Assembly (NCBI GenBank): GCA_003144275.1
Contig: NJBF01000019.1
Coordinates: forward strand, 44,907-76,906
DNA length: 32,000 nt
Source: Candidatus Heimdallarchaeota archaeon B3_Heim
GTDB lineage: Archaea > Asgardarchaeota > Heimdallarchaeia > Hodarchaeales > Hodarchaeaceae
Direction of reading: 5' to 3'
Shown in pieces: positions 2,361-9,459 of the stretch. Both the position numbers and the translations under genes were made by a program. Numbering within the stretch: the stretch's first letter is position 1; every line of letters begins with the position of its first letter. The notes under the pieces were generated by a model. That model worked only from the letters and a program-made list of their open reading frames with translations. It was not told the DNA's origin and made no database searches.

Positions 2361-3356
2361 ATGCAACGAAAAAAACGAGTACTGCTAACACATAAAATTC
2401 CAGAAATTGGTATCGACCTTCTGAAGAAGCATTTTGAGGTTGTTATATTAGATTCTGAAGGTTCATTAGATATCCAATTGAATAAAATCTTACCTACCGT
2501 TGATTATCTTATCTCTCTTTTATCAGTAAGGATAGATAACAATCTATTAAGAAAGTTTCCAAATCTTAAGGGAATTGCTAATTATGCTGTCGGTTACAAT
2601 AATATAGATATCAATGCTGCGATTGAATGTGGTATACCAGTAACGAATACTCCTGATGTTTTAACCAATGCAACTGCAGATCTAACGTGGGGACTAATTC
2701 TAGCAGTTACACGAAGAATTGTTGAAGGGGATAAAGAATGTCGTCAAGCTACATTTTCAGGATGGGCACCTGAGTACATGTTAGGATATGAATTATCTGG
2801 GAAAACCCTGGGGATCGTGGGAATGGGGAGAATTGGTACAGCCGTGGCAAAAAGAGGGACTGGCTTTGATATGAAAATTTGTTATCATTCTCGAACGAAG
2901 TCAAAGGATCTGCCCGAATCAATGAAAGCAGTGCATCTTCCTGATTTAAAAACATTCTTAGAATCTTGTGACATCGTAAGTCTACATGTACCATATACAG
3001 ACAAAACTCATCACTTTATTGGGGAAAATGAGTTGAACTGGATGAAGAAAAACGCCTTTCTAATTAATACATCTCGTGGGAAAGTGATTGACGAAGTAGC
3101 GTTAATTAACACACTAAGTGAGAGTAAAATTGCTGGTGCAGGTCTAGATGTCTACTATAATGAACCATTAATACCCAAGGGGTTACGTGAATTAAATAAT
3201 ACGGTACTAACTCCCCACATTGGATCTGCAACAAAACAAGCTCGCGAAGCAATGGCAATCATGGTCGCAGAGAATATTATTGCAATCGAAAAGGGATTAA
3301 TACCCCCCAATTTAATACCTGAAATGAAAAAAGAGATTTTGAAAGGAAATCATTGA
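2361..3356 (+). CDS. gyaR: Glyoxylate reductase / D-glycerate dehydrogenase (D-2-hydroxyacid dehydrogenase)
   Basis: Motifs AVGYNNID, NTPDVLTNATADL, Rossmann GIVGMGRIG, LINTSRG, AGLDVYYNEP and LTPHIGSAT. Confidence 0.88.
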   Translation: MQRKKRVLLTHKIPEIGIDLLKKHFEVVILDSEGSLDIQLNKILPTVDYLISLLSVRIDNNLLRKFPNLKGIANYAVGYNNIDINAAIECGIPVTNTPDVLTNATADLTWGLILAVTRRIVEGDKECRQATFSGWAPEYMLGYELSGKTLGIVGMGRIGTAVAKRGTGFDMKICYHSRTKSKDLPESMKAVHLPDLKTFLESCDIVSLHVPYTDKTHHFIGENELNWMKKNAFLINTSRGKVIDEVALINTLSESKIAGAGLDVYYNEPLIPKGLRELNNTVLTPHIGSATKQAREAMAIMVAENIIAIEKGLIPPNLIPEMKKEILKGNH

Positions 3357-5044
3357 ACTTTACTTAGATTTCCTTTACAATAGGGGCAAACTCTGATGCC
3401 AGTTTTTCCGATGTCATCATAACAATTCGCACAAACCATTCGTGAACATTGATCACATTGGTAAGCAGAGTCAGTTGAGGGATGCTGCTCATTGTCTAAT
3501 TGACAGAAGAAAGATTTTCTTTCATCAGGGAAAAATTTGTGAGAATCGGACTTCTGCTCTACTGGTGTGCCACAATTCTTACAGAAACGACTATCTGACT
3601 TCAAAGTGTCACCACAGTTTTTACACCATTTAGAATTTGCAGGAGTTGTCGCTTTAGGTGTACCATAGTCACGCCCATGAAGTTTAGCCCCACAATTTGT
3701 ACAAAAGACATCACTAGGCCTGTAAACCGCTTTACATCTATGACACTCAGTCTTTTGAGGTGACGGGGCCGTAGTAGTTGTAGCAGTCTGTGTTACTGCT
3801 GAACCTGTACTCGTGGCTGCTGCACTTGCACTTTTCTTAGAACTTCTTCGTTGGACTACCGCAATTATGAGAACGAGGACAGCGATAAAGCCTATAACGA
3901 ATAAAACAGGCCTTGCATCCTTCCAGTGGTCTTCGTATGTCACATCTGTATTATACCGAACTTCAAACGAAATGTCTACAGATTCTTCAGAGTTGACAAA
4001 TGGATTCATATATATGAAGAAATACCAGGTGCCATCATAGGGCACTGTAAATGTTCCAGATTGTCGATCGTCGACATCCTCAATAAATAAACCTGGGGGG
4101 TCAGCTGCAGAGAAATCAATATTGTCCGTGGCAACATAATCCACCATAAAATCTATCTGAATCGGTGAAGTGGTCGGGTTGTACCATACTAAGTACCAAT
4201 CCTGGGCGTAGGTAACCACAAAGGTATTCTCATAGGGGTCAGAGCCAACGTAGGAATCCTCGGGTATTATTGTCTCCCAATTGTTCCAACGATTAAGAGC
4301 ATTTGCATCAGCAACAAAAAATTCTATATCACCGCCTGAGGTTACGTTAAATTGGAAGGTTAATACAGAACCTGGCTTTAAAAAGTACCCAATGTATTGA
4401 TAGTCATGATCAGCCTGAACGATCATACTCTCGGAATAGCTACCAGTAAGGTCTTGATCTTGCGGTAAATTCTCAAACGGTTGATCCCAAATAAGAAACG
4501 TCACCGTGGACGTTGCTTCGACGCTATAATCGATTATTTGATCTTCTTTCATCGGTTCCCGTTCATACCAATATTCATTATACCAAATAGTTTGTGTATC
4601 TTGATATGTGACTGTTCCACTTTCATTACTACTAGCAAATGGATAAGGAATGAAAGCCATACTAATCATTGGTAGAATTACGAGTAATGCGATGATACCA
4701 AGAACTGCGCCACCACCCCAATAAACAGGTGCATAATACCATCTTCGGTATGGATATCCCCACCACCAATTCCAATGCCACCATCGACGATACCATGGCC
4801 GATAATAACCGCCCCAATAACGTCGATGACGTCTACGATGATAGTTTCTTCCTGGACGAGATCGTGGGGCACGAGAAACAGTTCGACGAGAACCTGTGCG
4901 ACCAAAGGGCCGACCTGATCTTCTTACTGATCCTACTCTGAAGCTTCGACTTCCACCTCGGAAACCTCCACCTCTAAACCCACCACCACCTCGAAAACCG
5001 CCCCCTCCACCGCCTCGAAATCCACCGCCACCGCCACGAGGCAT
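3350..5044 (-). CDS. Two-TM membrane protein: Gly/Arg (RGG-like) N-terminus, GOLD/emp24-like extracellular region, two zinc ribbons, C-terminal RING-like Zn finger
   Basis: Start moved from 5095 to the ATG at 5044, which follows GAGGAGG. Hydrophobic helices AVLGIIALLVILPMISMAFI and VLFVIGFIAVLVLIIAVV; CxxC pairs near the C-terminus. Domain names are inferred by eye. Confidence 0.8.
   Translation of the reverse strand: MPRGGGGGFRGGGGGGFRGGGGFRGGGFRGGSRSFRVGSVRRSGRPFGRTGSRRTVSRAPRSRPGRNYHRRRHRRYWGGYYRPWYRRWWHWNWWWGYPYRRWYYAPVYWGGGAVLGIIALLVILPMISMAFIPYPFASSNESGTVTYQDTQTIWYNEYWYEREPMKEDQIIDYSVEATSTVTFLIWDQPFENLPQDQDLTGSYSESMIVQADHDYQYIGYFLKPGSVLTFQFNVTSGGDIEFFVADANALNRWNNWETIIPEDSYVGSDPYENTFVVTYAQDWYLVWYNPTTSPIQIDFMVDYVATDNIDFSAADPPGLFIEDVDDRQSGTFTVPYDGTWYFFIYMNPFVNSEESVDISFEVRYNTDVTYEDHWKDARPVLFVIGFIAVLVLIIAVVQRRSSKKSASAAATSTGSAVTQTATTTTAPSPQKTECHRCKAVYRPSDVFCTNCGAKLHGRDYGTPKATTPANSKWCKNCGDTLKSDSRFCKNCGTPVEQKSDSHKFFPDERKSFFCQLDNEQHPSTDSAYQCDQCSRMVCANCYDDIGKTGIRVCPYCKGNLSKVQ
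4940..5044 (-). repeat. Low-complexity GGN codon repeat encoding four FR(G)n units
   Basis: Translation MPRGGGGGFRGGGGGGFRGGGGFRGGGFRGGSRSFR. Confidence 0.9.
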
Positions 5045-5048
5045 TTTT

Positions 5049-6017
5049 TTATTCCTCCTCGGGTGTGGCGGACGTTTCGCGGAATACAAGGTCACGAGAA
5101 ACGGCTGCGAGTAGACAAATTATTGCTATAACTGAGAATAACAATCCACCAAAATCAATTTGAGTACTAGAAACACGTAGGACATCCATCAGAATGAAAG
5201 AAACAAAGAATAGCCATTCTACTATAATTCCTAACAGACCTAATAAAGTACCAATAGCATGCCAATTCCGATTGACTTTAATCATCTTATAATCTGCATA
5301 TGCCCATTGGAAAATTGCATAAATGCTTACAAGACCAAGAACGATAAATAAGACCCCAAAGATTGACAAAGAAAGCCATAAAAAGTTAAATTGACCTTGG
5401 ATATCTGTATATCGGATCCAAAAACTAGCCCCACGAACCTCAAAAAGATAGTACGTGGCTGTGAAACCCCCTTGGCTTGCAATCGGTGCTTTTAGGTAAC
5501 CAACAATACCTATAAGGGGAGCAAAAATCCCGAAAAATAGGTATAACACCGACATAAGAATGGTAAAACTATAATTTGCAAATCGTGGATTAGAAACAGG
5601 TATGAGGCCTTTTTGGTCTTCATACTTTTCAGGTAAAAAACCCCAGCAATCAGTTATCGTAGCAACTCCGATAACTTCATTATTTTCTACAACAGGAACG
5701 ACTGATACATCTAAATCTCTCATACGAGCAAAAGCATCGGATACTGTTGTACTTTTTGTGACTGGGTCAATTGTGTACATAATCTCGGTTACTTTTGACT
5801 TATCCACAGATAACCCTTCTGCAACCAAGCCAGTTACAATATCAAAATCAGCTATGACGCCCTGATACATATTATCGTCATCAAGGACAACCAAATCAGG
5901 AATTCCTTTTTCCTTCATTTTTAATGCCGCTTCTTGTACTGAGGCATTGGCTGAAATTGTATCATACTCATCATCAATTGTTAAATCTTGAATTAAGAAC
6001 TCTTTTTCTTTTGACAA
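5049..6017 (-). CDS. CBS-pair protein fused to a C-terminal domain of about 4 TM helices
   Basis: Two CBS repeats (TISANASVQEAALKMKEKGIPDLVVLD...GVIADFDIV; VTKSTTVSDAFARMRDLDVSVVPVVENNEVIGVATITD) followed by four hydrophobic segments. TTG start with GGAGGT upstream. Confidence 0.85.
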   Translation of the reverse strand: MSKEKEFLIQDLTIDDEYDTISANASVQEAALKMKEKGIPDLVVLDDDNMYQGVIADFDIVTGLVAEGLSVDKSKVTEIMYTIDPVTKSTTVSDAFARMRDLDVSVVPVVENNEVIGVATITDCWGFLPEKYEDQKGLIPVSNPRFANYSFTILMSVLYLFFGIFAPLIGIVGYLKAPIASQGGFTATYYLFEVRGASFWIRYTDIQGQFNFLWLSLSIFGVLFIVLGLVSIYAIFQWAYADYKMIKVNRNWHAIGTLLGLLGIIVEWLFFVSFILMDVLRVSSTQIDFGGLLFSVIAIICLLAAVSRDLVFRETSATPEEE

Positions 6018-6272: not shown

Positions 6273-6401
6273 GTGAATACAATTGTTATTTCTTGGGTAG
6301 TCACCGTTCCAGTAACTACAGTACTTGGAGCAATTATCTGGTTTGTTGTTGATTGGGTATATGTTGCATTGAGTTTCGGAATGGTTTCTCTTCTCTTTTA
6401 A
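6273..6401 (+). CDS. Possible 42-aa hydrophobic peptide or remnant resembling the last helix of a PiT-family transporter
   Basis: GTG-started ORF (V)NTIVISWVVTVPVTTVLGAIIWFVVDWVYVALSFGMVSLLF. Its TAA overlaps the cdc6 stop codon. Confidence 0.3.
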   Translation: MNTIVISWVVTVPVTTVLGAIIWFVVDWVYVALSFGMVSLLF

Positions 6402-7681
6402 TCTCCGTTCAACAAAGATCCAAGGGAAGTGATAATTTCCTCTGTCGGTAAGTCACGAATCCTTATGGTTGAAATTCGTCCTAAAGACCGACCATTAGTA
6501 TGACGATTTTCCACTTCTTGTTGAATTAAACCAAGTCGGCCTAAATCCTTTAGATATGCCCATACTTGTGTTTGCCGTCTACTACGTATACTTGCTTCTT
6601 CGCACACCCTTTCGTATTCTCTTTTTACCTCGGGAGTAGTTACAAATGACTGATTACAAACCGAAAGAAGACGGGCAATACTGAGCAACACAAGTTTTTG
6701 GTGGGTGTTTAAATCATCAATTATTGATTTTTCAATTGGTAGTACTTCCACGACTGCCCGTCTAACGTGCTCTGTACTAAGTTTTTTTTCTCCCTCAGCT
6801 TCACAAATTTTTGCTGTTCTCCAAAGAAGTTCAATAGCAAATCTAGCATCACCTTTTTCTTCAGCGAGACTGGCAACTGTATCTAGCAGCTCATCGCTAT
6901 AACTATCTTCACATAACCCCTGCTCTGCTCGGGTTGCTAGTATATCGAATAGTTGATACCGAGTGTATGGGGCAAATGTAATATAGTTGCGACCTAAAGA
7001 TGAAGCGGTAGAAGTATCTAAATAATAACGGAAATTTTTATCCCGAGTAATCGTGAGAAGATTAAAACGGGACTCTAAACGATCCTGAGAAAGTTCGAAT
7101 TCTTCTCTAATAATAGGTGATTCTTCTAATCGGGAAAGAGAATAAAGAAAATCAGTCCTTTCCTCAGGTAACAGGTAATCAATTTCGTCTAAGACAAGGA
7201 GCACTGTTAAGTTCTGTTCGTATAGTAAGAGAGTGAACATTCGTAATAATTCATCAACACTGAACCCTCTCAAGGGAAATCCTGACACTAGATATCTGAG
7301 GACGGTTGTTAGAATGAGATGTGGAGTTTTAGTCTTCCTACAATTCATATGAAAATATCTAAATCTCGGCTCTCCATGATTACGATTTTTAGCAATATAA
7401 GTTGTCAATTCATTTCCAAAAGCATGGGAGATGACAGTTTTCCCAGTCCCCACTGGTCCATAAAGAATTACTTTCTTTGAGGAAGCAGTCGGACTCGTGA
7501 TGATAGATTTAAAATACGAAACAAGGGCTTTCATTTCATCTTCCCGATGCCAGATAGAATGAGGTGTATATGAAGATGTAAACACTTTTTCTCCTTGATT
7601 TACATCACCATCATCTTCGCGAAAAACTGTTGGATGAGAACCAAAAAGATCTGAAAATGAGTAATTATTATTGGTATCCAT
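6398..7681 (-). CDS. cdc6: Cdc6/Orc1 replication initiator (AAA+ with C-terminal winged helix)
   Basis: YTPHSIWHREDE, Walker A GPVGTGKT, MNCR, Walker B VLDEID, sensor-2 GDARFAIELL, and a wHTH C-terminus (RRQTQVWAYLKDLGRLGLI...GR). Confidence 0.95.
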   Translation of the reverse strand: MDTNNNYSFSDLFGSHPTVFREDDGDVNQGEKVFTSSYTPHSIWHREDEMKALVSYFKSIITSPTASSKKVILYGPVGTGKTVISHAFGNELTTYIAKNRNHGEPRFRYFHMNCRKTKTPHLILTTVLRYLVSGFPLRGFSVDELLRMFTLLLYEQNLTVLLVLDEIDYLLPEERTDFLYSLSRLEESPIIREEFELSQDRLESRFNLLTITRDKNFRYYLDTSTASSLGRNYITFAPYTRYQLFDILATRAEQGLCEDSYSDELLDTVASLAEEKGDARFAIELLWRTAKICEAEGEKKLSTEHVRRAVVEVLPIEKSIIDDLNTHQKLVLLSIARLLSVCNQSFVTTPEVKREYERVCEEASIRSRRQTQVWAYLKDLGRLGLIQQEVENRHTNGRSLGRISTIRIRDLPTEEIITSLGSLLNGD

Positions 7682-8373: not shown

Positions 8374-9459
8374 ATGCCACCCCGCAAGAAAAAATCAAAC
8401 AATGCTAAGAATGAAATTGTTGAGGAAGAAGGTGTGTTGGAAAGTGCAATATCAGAAAATTCCACCTCTGTTCCTAATGTAGCTACTAATAAAGAAGCAT
8501 CAACTGGGAATATTGATGAACTTCCAGGTATTGGCCCTGCAACCGCAAAGAAATTGAGGGAATCAGGCTTTGGAACATTGGAATCGCTCGCTACGGTGAG
8601 TATTGGTCAATTAGTTGCAGTAGGTAATCTTGGAGAAGCTACTTCAAGTAAAATTATCCAAGCAGCGAGAGATGCACTTAATTTTGGTTTCGTTTCTGCA
8701 GATGAAATATTAGAACGTCGACGAAACATGTTAAAGATTACTACCGGTTCAGCATCGCTGGACGACCTATTTGGTGGTGGAATTGAAACTAGTGCAGTTA
8801 CTGAACTTTATGGGGAATTTCGGACTGGAAAAACGCAATTAGCTCATCAATTATGCGTTGCTGCACAGCTACCCCGTGAATTAGGTGGATTACGTGTTGA
8901 TGGACCAATTAAAGTAATTTATATCGATACTGAAGGTACTTTTCGGCCTGAACGTATTCTAAATATGACTAAGAGATGGGAAGGTGATTTGGATGTCAAA
9001 CAGGTCTTAAAAAACATTATGCATGGCCGTGCATATAATAGTGACCATCAAATGGTTCTAGCTGAAAAAGCAGCTCAAGATAGTCAAACAGAGCCAATCG
9101 GATTGGTCATAGTTGACTCATTAATTGCACATTTTCGTGCGGAATATATTGGCCGAGGAACATTGGCGAGTAGACAACAAAAATTGAACCAACACATCCA
9201 TACTTTACTTAAAATGGCCGAAGTCGGAAATATGGCCGTCATTCTCACTAATCAAGTCCATTCTAAACCAGATATGTTTTTTGGTGATCCAACTTTGCCT
9301 GTTGGTGGACATATTGTAGCTCATGCAAGTCAGACTCGTGTTTACCTTCGAAAATCCAAGGGTGAACGCCGGATTGCTCGAATTGCCGATTCACCTCTTT
9401 TACCTGAAAATGAAACAGTATTCGCTATCACTGGCGATGGTATTATCGACGTGAACTAG
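8374..9459 (+). CDS. radA: DNA repair and recombination protein RadA
   Basis: HhH N-terminal domain (IDELPGIGPATAKKL), FVSA polymerisation motif, GEFRTGKTQLAHQL, YIDTEGTFRPERI, Walker B IVDSLIAHFRAEY, GRGTLASRQQKL, TNQV and GGHIVAHAS. Confidence 0.97.
   Translation: MPPRKKKSNNAKNEIVEEEGVLESAISENSTSVPNVATNKEASTGNIDELPGIGPATAKKLRESGFGTLESLATVSIGQLVAVGNLGEATSSKIIQAARDALNFGFVSADEILERRRNMLKITTGSASLDDLFGGGIETSAVTELYGEFRTGKTQLAHQLCVAAQLPRELGGLRVDGPIKVIYIDTEGTFRPERILNMTKRWEGDLDVKQVLKNIMHGRAYNSDHQMVLAEKAAQDSQTEPIGLVIVDSLIAHFRAEYIGRGTLASRQQKLNQHIHTLLKMAEVGNMAVILTNQVHSKPDMFFGDPTLPVGGHIVAHASQTRVYLRKSKGERRIARIADSPLLPENETVFAITGDGIIDVN

Follow-up and report, generated by a model that had tools for sequence, protein, structure and literature searches.

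The window analysed here is the whole 32,000-nucleotide stretch of contig NJBF01000019.1 from Candidatus Heimdallarchaeota archaeon B3_Heim (positions 44,907 to 76,906). On its minus strand it carries two adjacent genes, referred to below as genes A and B, the first encoding a protein with a cytoplasmic pair of CBS domains and four transmembrane (TM) helices, the second a two-pass membrane protein with a Gly/Arg-rich head, a nested beta-sandwich ectodomain and a tail of zinc ribbons and a RING-like finger. We show that gene B is the archaeal counterpart, or a new archaeal branch, of a known and poorly studied eukaryotic family, that of the Arabidopsis ABERRANT POLLEN DEVELOPMENT (APD) proteins, and that it is kept next to gene A across a wide range of Asgard genomes. 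The homology of gene B to the APD family is very probable, and it suggests that this eukaryotic family of membrane proteins began in archaea. Taken together, the data are best explained by a co-translated membrane module in which gene B would act as a membrane E3 ligase or E3 adaptor alongside a CBS-regulated gene A, a reading to which we give a probability of about 0.5.

The kinship with the APD family is apparent at the level of structure. In a Foldseek search of reviewed UniProt models with gene B, the four top matches were Arabidopsis APD2, APD1, APD3 and APD4, with E-values from 3.7e-16 to 6.8e-13, and the alignment to APD2 covered nearly the whole of both chains (residues 37-564 of the query, 33-442 of the target). 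The TM-scores to the APDs are only 0.25-0.32, as the domains are placed differently with respect to one another. Among AlphaFold clusters, an Asgard orthologue came first and was followed by eukaryotic APD or RING/U-box proteins, with E-values down to 1.4e-16; several of these cluster entries are named APD1-4 middle-domain or RING-type proteins, at TM-scores of 0.2-0.3.

Sequence profiles also connect the two groups. The Pfam profile APD1-4_N matches 19 of the 31 aligned gene B orthologues at an E-value of 0.05 or below, the best E-value being 5.3e-6, and P0045, the best of those tested, reaches 26.9 bits. We then built a profile, A3, from Asgard ectodomains and TM helices only and compared it with 1.84 billion (1.84e9) proteins by hmmsearch. 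It retrieved 159 matches at an E-value of 1e-3 or below, including the orthologues and a distant archaeal group, and five of the proteins matched, P0273, P0279, P0287, P0288 and P0307 (E-values from 2.2e-9 to 1.3e-5), score above the Pfam cut-offs for APD1-4_N, APD1-4_M or both. The E-values are 2.2e-9 for P0273, 2.2e-8 for P0279 and 1.3e-7 for P0288, and P0273 and P0288 exceed both cut-offs. P0273, which was transcribed in the amoebozoan Pellita catalonica, is the only one of these proteins whose source name establishes a eukaryotic origin; P0279 is assumed to be eukaryotic, and P0287, which is above the APD1-4_N cut-off, stands in an archaeal context and has no CBS neighbour. When the Asgard profile was aligned by hhalign with a profile of eleven APD-type proteins, the match had a probability of 99.5% and an E-value of 3.3e-22 over 237 columns, spanning the ectodomain and the second TM helix.

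The resemblance extends beyond the ectodomain. Four APD-type proteins start with MPRHGGG, MPHGGG, MPAGGG or MPVGGG followed by a Gly-rich tract, and a Trp/Tyr-rich tract precedes the first TM helix in several of them, for example P0279 and P0287. Where gene B has RGG repeats, the eukaryote-type relatives have a Gly/His-rich head with few Arg, and their cytoplasmic tails are Pro-rich and contain PPxY motifs. Such motifs are docking sites for WW-domain ubiquitin ligases of the NEDD4 family. The family thus has a common body plan, with a tail that is tied to ubiquitin ligases by a RING in plants and probably by PPxY motifs in other eukaryotes. The 321-kb contig that holds P0279 (ENA ERZ24894574 ctg6599l, locus L022) encodes at least three tandem eukaryote-type APD-domain paralogues separated by short spacers, with Gly/His-rich heads and PPxY tails.

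The Asgard and eukaryotic forms also differ in several respects. Arabidopsis APD1-4 (Pfam PF16040, APD1-4_N; PF16041, APD1-4_M) are membrane RING E3 proteins that share with gene B the succession of a TM helix, a nested beta-sandwich ectodomain, a second TM helix and a C-terminal zinc finger; homology at the profile level covers the ectodomain and second TM helix, yet identity is only 11-14%. The FRGG repeats and the double zinc ribbon are additions of the Asgard form, whose finger is of the C4C4 type with Asp as second ligand and whose ectodomain lacks Cys, whereas Cys residues are conserved in the ectodomain of eukaryote-type proteins. Unlike any APD gene known, gene B stands in an operon with a partner that encodes a CBS-tetraspan protein. 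The PPxY-tailed eukaryote-type proteins (P0273, P0279, P0316) share with gene B the layout of head, TM helix, ectodomain and TM helix and the MP.GGG start, but they carry a PPxY tail in place of the zinc ribbons and RING, have a Cys-rich ectodomain and occur in tandem gene arrays. The literature that names APD1-4, DUF4792/4793 or the Pfam accessions, as searched in a full-text library, consists essentially of plant studies, none of which ties the family to archaea, and a review of Asgard ESCRT systems names GOLD domains in another context only. The CBS-tetraspan operon partner, the FRGG head and the tail of zinc ribbon plus RING appear not to have been described for the APD family. A preliminary description of the two genes, made from the letters of this DNA, had considered their combination unlike any described system; this view is not supported for gene B, given its place in the APD family.

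Both proteins were searched in the same set of 301 Asgard genomes. This identified 74 A-B pairs in 73 genomes, with A always directly upstream of B and on the same strand, so that the adjacency on which the preliminary description had built its two-gene system recurs widely. The arrangement is beyond chance, and we are practically certain that A and B constitute a conserved operon. Genomes with a single partner are few (G162, G094, G125, G172 and G291), and the partner then lies at a contig end. Full-length A and B co-occur in the GTDB families f1, f14 and f27 and in one f3 genome, outside of which gene A matched stand-alone CBS proteins only. The relatives of A and B are labelled Hodarchaeales, Heimdallarchaeota, Lokiarchaeota/Promethearchaeota, Thor-, Hermod- and Odinarchaeota, the closest being Hodarchaeales. 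Hodarchaeales-type and Loki-type loci have no neighbours in common other than A and B themselves, and a search for a third conserved gene at these loci found none, the Cdc6/Orc1, 2-hydroxyacid dehydrogenase and amidohydrolase genes adjoining the pair in close relatives only; we conclude that the module is self-contained. More distant paralogues of gene B from archaea (tier 2, E-values from 1e-35 to 1e-13) occur alone or in tandem arrays without a CBS partner, which indicates that the pairing is specific to the RGG-headed orthologue group. The Logan contigs behind P0245 and P0265, for instance, carry distant paralogues (E-values from 1e-31 to 1e-13) in tandem arrays that comprise as many as four genes with DZR tails, again with no CBS partner.

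The junction of the two genes reads GAG GAG GAA TAA AAAA ATG: the TAA stop codon of gene A, at 5051..5049, is followed by four A residues and the ATG of gene B, exactly as the preliminary description had reported, and the last codons of gene A contain a motif of Shine-Dalgarno (SD) type. Across seven loci of diverse lineage, stop codon and ATG lie 0-9 nucleotides apart, gene B starts with MPRGG, and a purine-rich, SD-like run (GAGGAGG, AAGGAGG, GGTGAGGTG, CAGGAGGT or AAGGAGATGA) is present in the last codons of gene A in all seven. The window contains nine copies of GAGGAGG where 2.1 would be expected, and this enrichment was considered as a sign of SD use and rejected, as eight of the nine sites have no start of a long open reading frame at SD distance; the only one that does is that at 5054-5060, and the other eight are probably Glu-Glu codons. 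Because the motif mostly represents Glu-Glu codons in this window, its single occurrence at the A-B junction is weak evidence for coupling, and its conservation across loci is the stronger argument. With this support, the coupling proposed in the preliminary description holds up as plausible: the module may well be translationally coupled, and the arrangement of the two genes makes their co-transcription almost certain. A sediment metatranscriptome library (X12) contains four contigs of 151 nucleotides at least 97% identical to gene B, within window positions 3319-4984. They hint that gene B or a close relative is expressed, with DNA carry-over as a possible source, and since none of them lies over gene A or the A-B junction, they do not show co-transcription.

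The domains that the preliminary description had named, namely the CBS pair, the four TM helices, the RGG region, the GOLD-like sandwich, the zinc ribbons and the RING-like finger, were all called correctly, and their positions are given in table 1. The model of gene B has a predicted local distance difference test (pLDDT) score of 69 overall, about 90 in the ectodomain and below 50 in the head. In the alignment of the 31 orthologues, the near-invariant columns of its N-terminal part are R41, G44, P46-G51, R54, S57, R58, P83, W84, R87, W89, W102 and Y103. A Ser/Thr-rich linker separates the second TM helix from the zinc ribbons, and the charge distribution places both ends of the protein in the cytoplasm. 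In one variant, P0217 (875 residues, on a 3.4-kb contig), a long TPR array occupies the cytoplasmic N-terminus before the aromatic tract and the first TM helix.

Within the ectodomain, the inner sandwich superposes on the GOLD domain of p24beta1 (5azw) with a TM-score by target of 0.86 and a root-mean-square deviation (rmsd) of 1.7 Å over 103 columns, and a structure search gave 0.78 against 7rrm. TMED/p24 proteins match gene B at E-values of about 1e-4 among the reviewed UniProt models searched with Foldseek. No match of gene B to Pfam EMP24_GP25L was found at an E-value of 1 or below, and the profile of the whole protein retrieved only zinc-ribbon noise among PDB sequences. Matches to birnavirus VP2 structures (rmsd 14-22 Å, 4-8% identity) were read as a likeness between nested two-sandwich folds, and not as kinship. 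The ectodomain is also found fused to a WD40 beta-propeller in Promethearchaeota (P0083-P0090, for example residues 58-290 of P0084; 38% identity over 240 residues), which identifies it as a mobile module in Asgard archaea.

The tail combines two kinds of zinc-binding elements. The eight Cys of the zinc ribbons are invariant in all 31 orthologues. The RING-like finger that follows has eight zinc ligands arranged in four pairs with cross-brace spacing, of the C4C4 type with Asp as second ligand; over 20 finger modules, seven Cys are invariant and position 517 is a Cys in two paralogues, which indicates that Asp517 is indeed the second ligand. When the finger profile was compared with the PDB, it gave weak but consistent matches to RING domains with E-values from 3e-4 to 5e-2, namely those of IRX3 (3e-4), MAT1, TRIM32, NOT4 (1e4u, 3.5e-3), UHRF, BRE1, RING1B and RNF4. 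Similarly, the Pfam families zf-UDP, zf-RING_2, zf-RING_4 and Prok-RING_4 are matched by 13-16 of the 20 modules (13 for zf-RING_4). We consider it likely from these comparisons that the finger has a RING-type fold. Orthologues also keep a hydrophobic residue before the second ligand (L516) and a Lys immediately after the last Cys (K557), two positions that, by analogy, may be equivalent to the E2-contact and linchpin residues of active RINGs. Chain a of PDB entry 9fhl, the archaeal ribosomal protein aS34, matches the finger profile over its full length as well (E-value of 6.9e-4), with the same pattern of C-x2-C ... CPYC.

The finger is a mobile module: about eight further copies occur in other proteins of the same genome, and in related genomes it lies at the C-terminus of proteins of 304-852 residues. 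One of these occurrences links it to the ubiquitin system. A ubiquitin cluster of the same genome, outside the window (locus L021, G000:C57:1500-12500), encodes in order a JAB protease, a UQ_con E2, a 262-residue unknown protein, a ubiquitin-like protein (Rad60-SLD/ubiquitin), a ThiF-type E1, a 109-residue unknown protein, a 586-residue protein with two RING-like modules of the gene B type, an SPFH/Band 7 protein and an EAP30/Vps36-family protein. Across the genome, four genes code for a UQ_con E2. The finger of gene B thus belongs to a family that is linked to the ubiquitin cluster. Small RING proteins encoded in archaeal operons are active E3 ligases (PMC5654768). The finger of gene B shares with these proteins, and with CNOT4-type C4C4 RINGs, the eight ligands and the cross-brace spacing, and differs from both in its place at the C-terminus of a large membrane protein, in its Asp second ligand and in scores that stay under the family cut-offs.

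The AlphaFold model of gene A has a mean pLDDT of 83. Its CBS pair aligns with solved CBS pairs at a Z-score of 16.4 and an rmsd of 2.6-2.9 Å (VIA) and reaches a TM-score by target of 0.84 with Foldseek. Among the orthologues, G117, V118 and D123 are invariant and T120 nearly so; these residues lie in the G-V-A-T-I-T-D stretch of the window protein, which we take to resemble the ribose-phosphate motif of ligand-binding CBS domains and treat as a lead only. Because the CBS pair is necessarily cytoplasmic, both ends of gene A lie inside the cell. The model also contains four short beta strands (residues 175-202) in the first outer loop and ends in an acidic C-terminal tail. Searches for the fold of the membrane part (Foldseek against the PDB, VIA in its wide form, ESM Atlas) returned matches to CBS pairs only, and a feature search of the ESM Atlas with residues 135-322 gave scores of at most 0.82, in the range of noise. 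Our impression from the model is that the membrane layout recalls that of claudin-type tetraspans. A complex prediction with residues 100-410 of B and 135-322 of A, each with its own alignment, gave a score of 0.26 against a mark of 0.32, which speaks neither for nor against a contact.

These data lead to the following proposal. The ectodomain of gene B, and maybe the beta-rich outer loop of gene A as well, would bind a ligand or partner outside the cell, and A and B would form a complex in the membrane; we regard their physical contact as rather probable. Because its finger is of the same family as that of the E1-E2-ubiquitin cluster in this genome, gene B most likely acts in Hodarchaeales-type cells as an E3 ligase of RING type, or an E3 adaptor, that is anchored in the membrane. 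Its tail would recruit an E2 and modify a target with a ubiquitin-like protein at the inner face of the membrane, and we infer that a signal would run in this direction, from the ectodomain to the tail. That the finger has true E3 activity is possible, with odds somewhat short of even. Gene A would be the obligate partner, either a regulated target and then the first candidate substrate, or a co-receptor, and its CBS pair may bind adenosine nucleotides and so tune the module to their status in the cell.

Several observations weigh against this proposal, in particular against its ubiquitin part. No gene of the ubiquitin system is a conserved neighbour of the A-B pair in the loci compared. The finger itself is present in 13 of the 31 aligned orthologues, all of Hodarchaeales/Heimdall type. 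The LC_3 orthologue P0039, the related P0037 and every Loki-type orthologue lack it and keep the A-B linkage nonetheless. The conserved core function must therefore be independent of the finger and be sought in gene A and in the head, ectodomain and zinc ribbons of gene B. The ubiquitin link made in the preliminary description is still plausible, in view of the same finger module in the JAB-E2-ubiquitin-E1 cluster. Moreover, all scores against RING families in Pfam are below the cut-offs, the best being 23.3 bits for zf-UDP against 27.1, and the model of the tail is of intermediate quality (pLDDT 46-86 when averaged over ten-residue blocks). Only two of the 31 gene B proteins match zf-C3HC4_3, and weakly, the finger being of the C4C4/Asp type; owing to this mismatch of subtype, the fusion to a RING in plants and in Hodarchaeales may be convergent. 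As for the APD kinship, the window protein itself matches APD1-4_N with only 14.0 bits (E-value of 0.043, residues 204-236), below the gathering score of 27 bits, and has no match to APD1-4_M. On the side of gene A, the membrane part shows no consistent Pfam family even at an E-value of 10. Finally, no fusion of A and B was found among longer proteins, where the sole match was a fungal PB1-CBS protein, which is weak evidence.

The same facts could be accommodated by a CBS-gated channel or transporter, in which gene A would form a dimeric pathway for ions or solutes and gene B would be a non-catalytic auxiliary subunit, its ectodomain stabilizing or gating A and its zinc fingers serving as protein contacts only, without any role for ubiquitin. 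The fusion of a CBS pair to a membrane domain is a typical feature of transport proteins, and MgtE is the top whole-chain Foldseek match of gene A (E-value of 4.4e-9); the persistence of the linkage where gene B has no finger and the lack of a conserved ubiquitin neighbour fit this explanation too. However, the MgtE alignment has an rmsd of 21 Å, and only its CBS part truly matches. The same holds for MgtE, CNNM/CorB and ClC as a group, which combine a cytoplasmic CBS pair with a membrane domain as gene A does and match it at Z-scores of 12-16 in the CBS part, whereas its four helices and beta-rich outer loop resemble none of them, nor DUF21. In addition, the eukaryotic homologues of gene B are RING ligases or PPxY-tailed proteins, and its finger family is represented in the ubiquitin cluster. 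We find a channel or transporter unlikely. Another explanation would draw on the GOLD-like fold and make gene B a receptor that binds and sorts surface or secreted proteins, or the cargo of vesicles, in the manner of p24/TMED proteins, with gene A as co-receptor and with the disordered Gly/Arg/aromatic head and the zinc ribbons recruiting cytoplasmic coat, ESCRT or cytoskeletal factors. The closeness of the inner sandwich to p24 GOLD and the TMED matches speak for it, as do the WD40 fusions of the same ectodomain in paralogues, the EMP24/GOLD-type proteins among the tier-3 matches of profile A3 and the position of a paralogous finger protein beside SPFH and Vps22/36-like genes. A GOLD fold by itself, however, tells nothing about function, and p24 proteins are of type I, cross the membrane once and have a coiled coil and a short tail, with neither outer sandwich nor zinc fingers, whereas gene B has the two-pass, nested-sandwich topology of the APD proteins. 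Nor is a trafficking gene found among the conserved neighbours of the pair, and we rate such a sorting function as quite unlikely.

The preliminary description itself had offered a fuller model, in which the RGG head binds RNA, the RING ubiquitylates, an extracellular sensor drives the system and the CBS pair tunes it by energy charge. The FRGG repeats are real and kept in 30 of the 31 orthologues, and so are the CBS pair and the RING-like finger. Eukaryote-type relatives, however, have Gly/His-rich tracts with few Arg in the place of the repeats, and the archaeal variant P0217 has its TPR array there, before the aromatic tract; this replacement of RGG in relatives indicates that the conserved feature is a Gly-rich disordered head rather than an RNA-binding box. 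The pair has no linked RNA-related gene either. We consider this model in its entirety very unlikely.

The interest of the module lies in what it adds to the known ubiquitin systems of Asgard archaea. Eukaryotic endomembrane sorting and quality control are driven by membrane-anchored ubiquitin ligases and adaptors. To our knowledge, the ubiquitin parts known from Asgard archaea comprise E1, E2 and small RING proteins, all of them soluble. The module adds to these a family of membrane proteins common to Asgard archaea and eukaryotes, shared down to the N-terminal motif and, in the Hodarchaeales-type lineage, already equipped with a RING-type finger of the family that occurs in the ubiquitin cluster. 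If the tail is an active E3, membrane ubiquitylation would become open to study in an archaeon, with gene A to be considered first as substrate or regulator, and the APD family, which is poorly understood, would gain an origin that can be tested. A more far-reaching scenario, which we put forward tentatively and consider rather unlikely, is that A-B works in the archaeon as a ubiquitylation device coupled to the cell surface, and that a eukaryotic family of membrane ubiquitin ligases and ligase adaptors descends directly from it. The APD body plan, by which we mean the MP.GGG head, the aromatic belt, a TM helix, the nested GOLD-type ectodomain, a TM helix and a ligase-recruiting tail, would on this view have come down by vertical descent from an ancestor similar to Heimdall/Hodarchaeales, with later exchange of the tail among zinc ribbon, RING and PPxY versions, and the CBS-tetraspan partner would have been lost in eukaryotes or would be unrecognized there.

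Table 1. Positions of genes A and B and of their features in the window
Feature	Residues	Window position	Strand	Description
Gene A	322 residues	6017..5049	minus	TTG start; from open reading frame and translation; orthologues start at the same position
CBS pair (Bateman module) of A	1-130	5628..6017	minus	Cytoplasmic; Pfam CBS, E-value 6.9e-15, 55.6 bits against a cut-off of 24, in two stretches
TM part of A	140-312	5082..5600	minus	TM helices 144-169, 211-244, 252-276 and 289-306 (model, pLDDT 85-95)
SD-like motif GAGGAGG		5060..5054	minus	Within the last codons of gene A; ends 9 nucleotides ahead of the gene B ATG
Gene B	564 residues	5044..3350	minus	ATG start at 5044, stop 3352..3350; from translation, orthologue alignment and model
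Head of B	1-35	4940..5044	minus	MPRGGG start and FRGG repeats (residues 1-31); cytoplasmic, predicted disordered
Conserved motif and aromatic tract of B	36-110	4715..4939	minus	SGRPFGRTG..R..SR motif, then Arg/Trp/Tyr-rich tract by the membrane
First TM helix of B	~111-133	4646..4714	minus	Model helix 106-131; after a GGG motif, G111 invariant
Ectodomain of B	140-368	3941..4627	minus	Outer beta-sandwich with inserted GOLD-like sandwich; homologous to APD1-4_N/M; strands 144-365
Inner GOLD-like sandwich of B	~197-306	4127..4456	minus	Similar to the p24beta1 GOLD domain
Second TM helix of B	~376-398	3851..3919	minus	Model helix 370-402; followed by RR..KK stop-transfer; R399 invariant, K403 nearly so
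Double zinc ribbon of B	431-495	3560..3754	minus	C-x2-C-x10-C-x2-C twice; Pfam DZR, 37.6 bits against a cut-off of 27.3
RING-like finger of B	505-564	3353..3532	minus	C514-x2-D517-x12-C530-x2-C533-x4-C538-x2-C541-x11-C553-P-x-C556

Around the pair, gene B and a convergent 2-hydroxyacid dehydrogenase-like gene (2361-3356, plus strand) share 7 nucleotides at their 3' ends (3350-3356), which leaves no space for separate terminators. Directly upstream of gene A and on the same strand lies an Orc1/Cdc6-like AAA+ gene (window 6398-7681, minus strand), beyond which follows a gene for a RadA-like recombinase (window 8374-9459, plus strand), both identified by sequence only.

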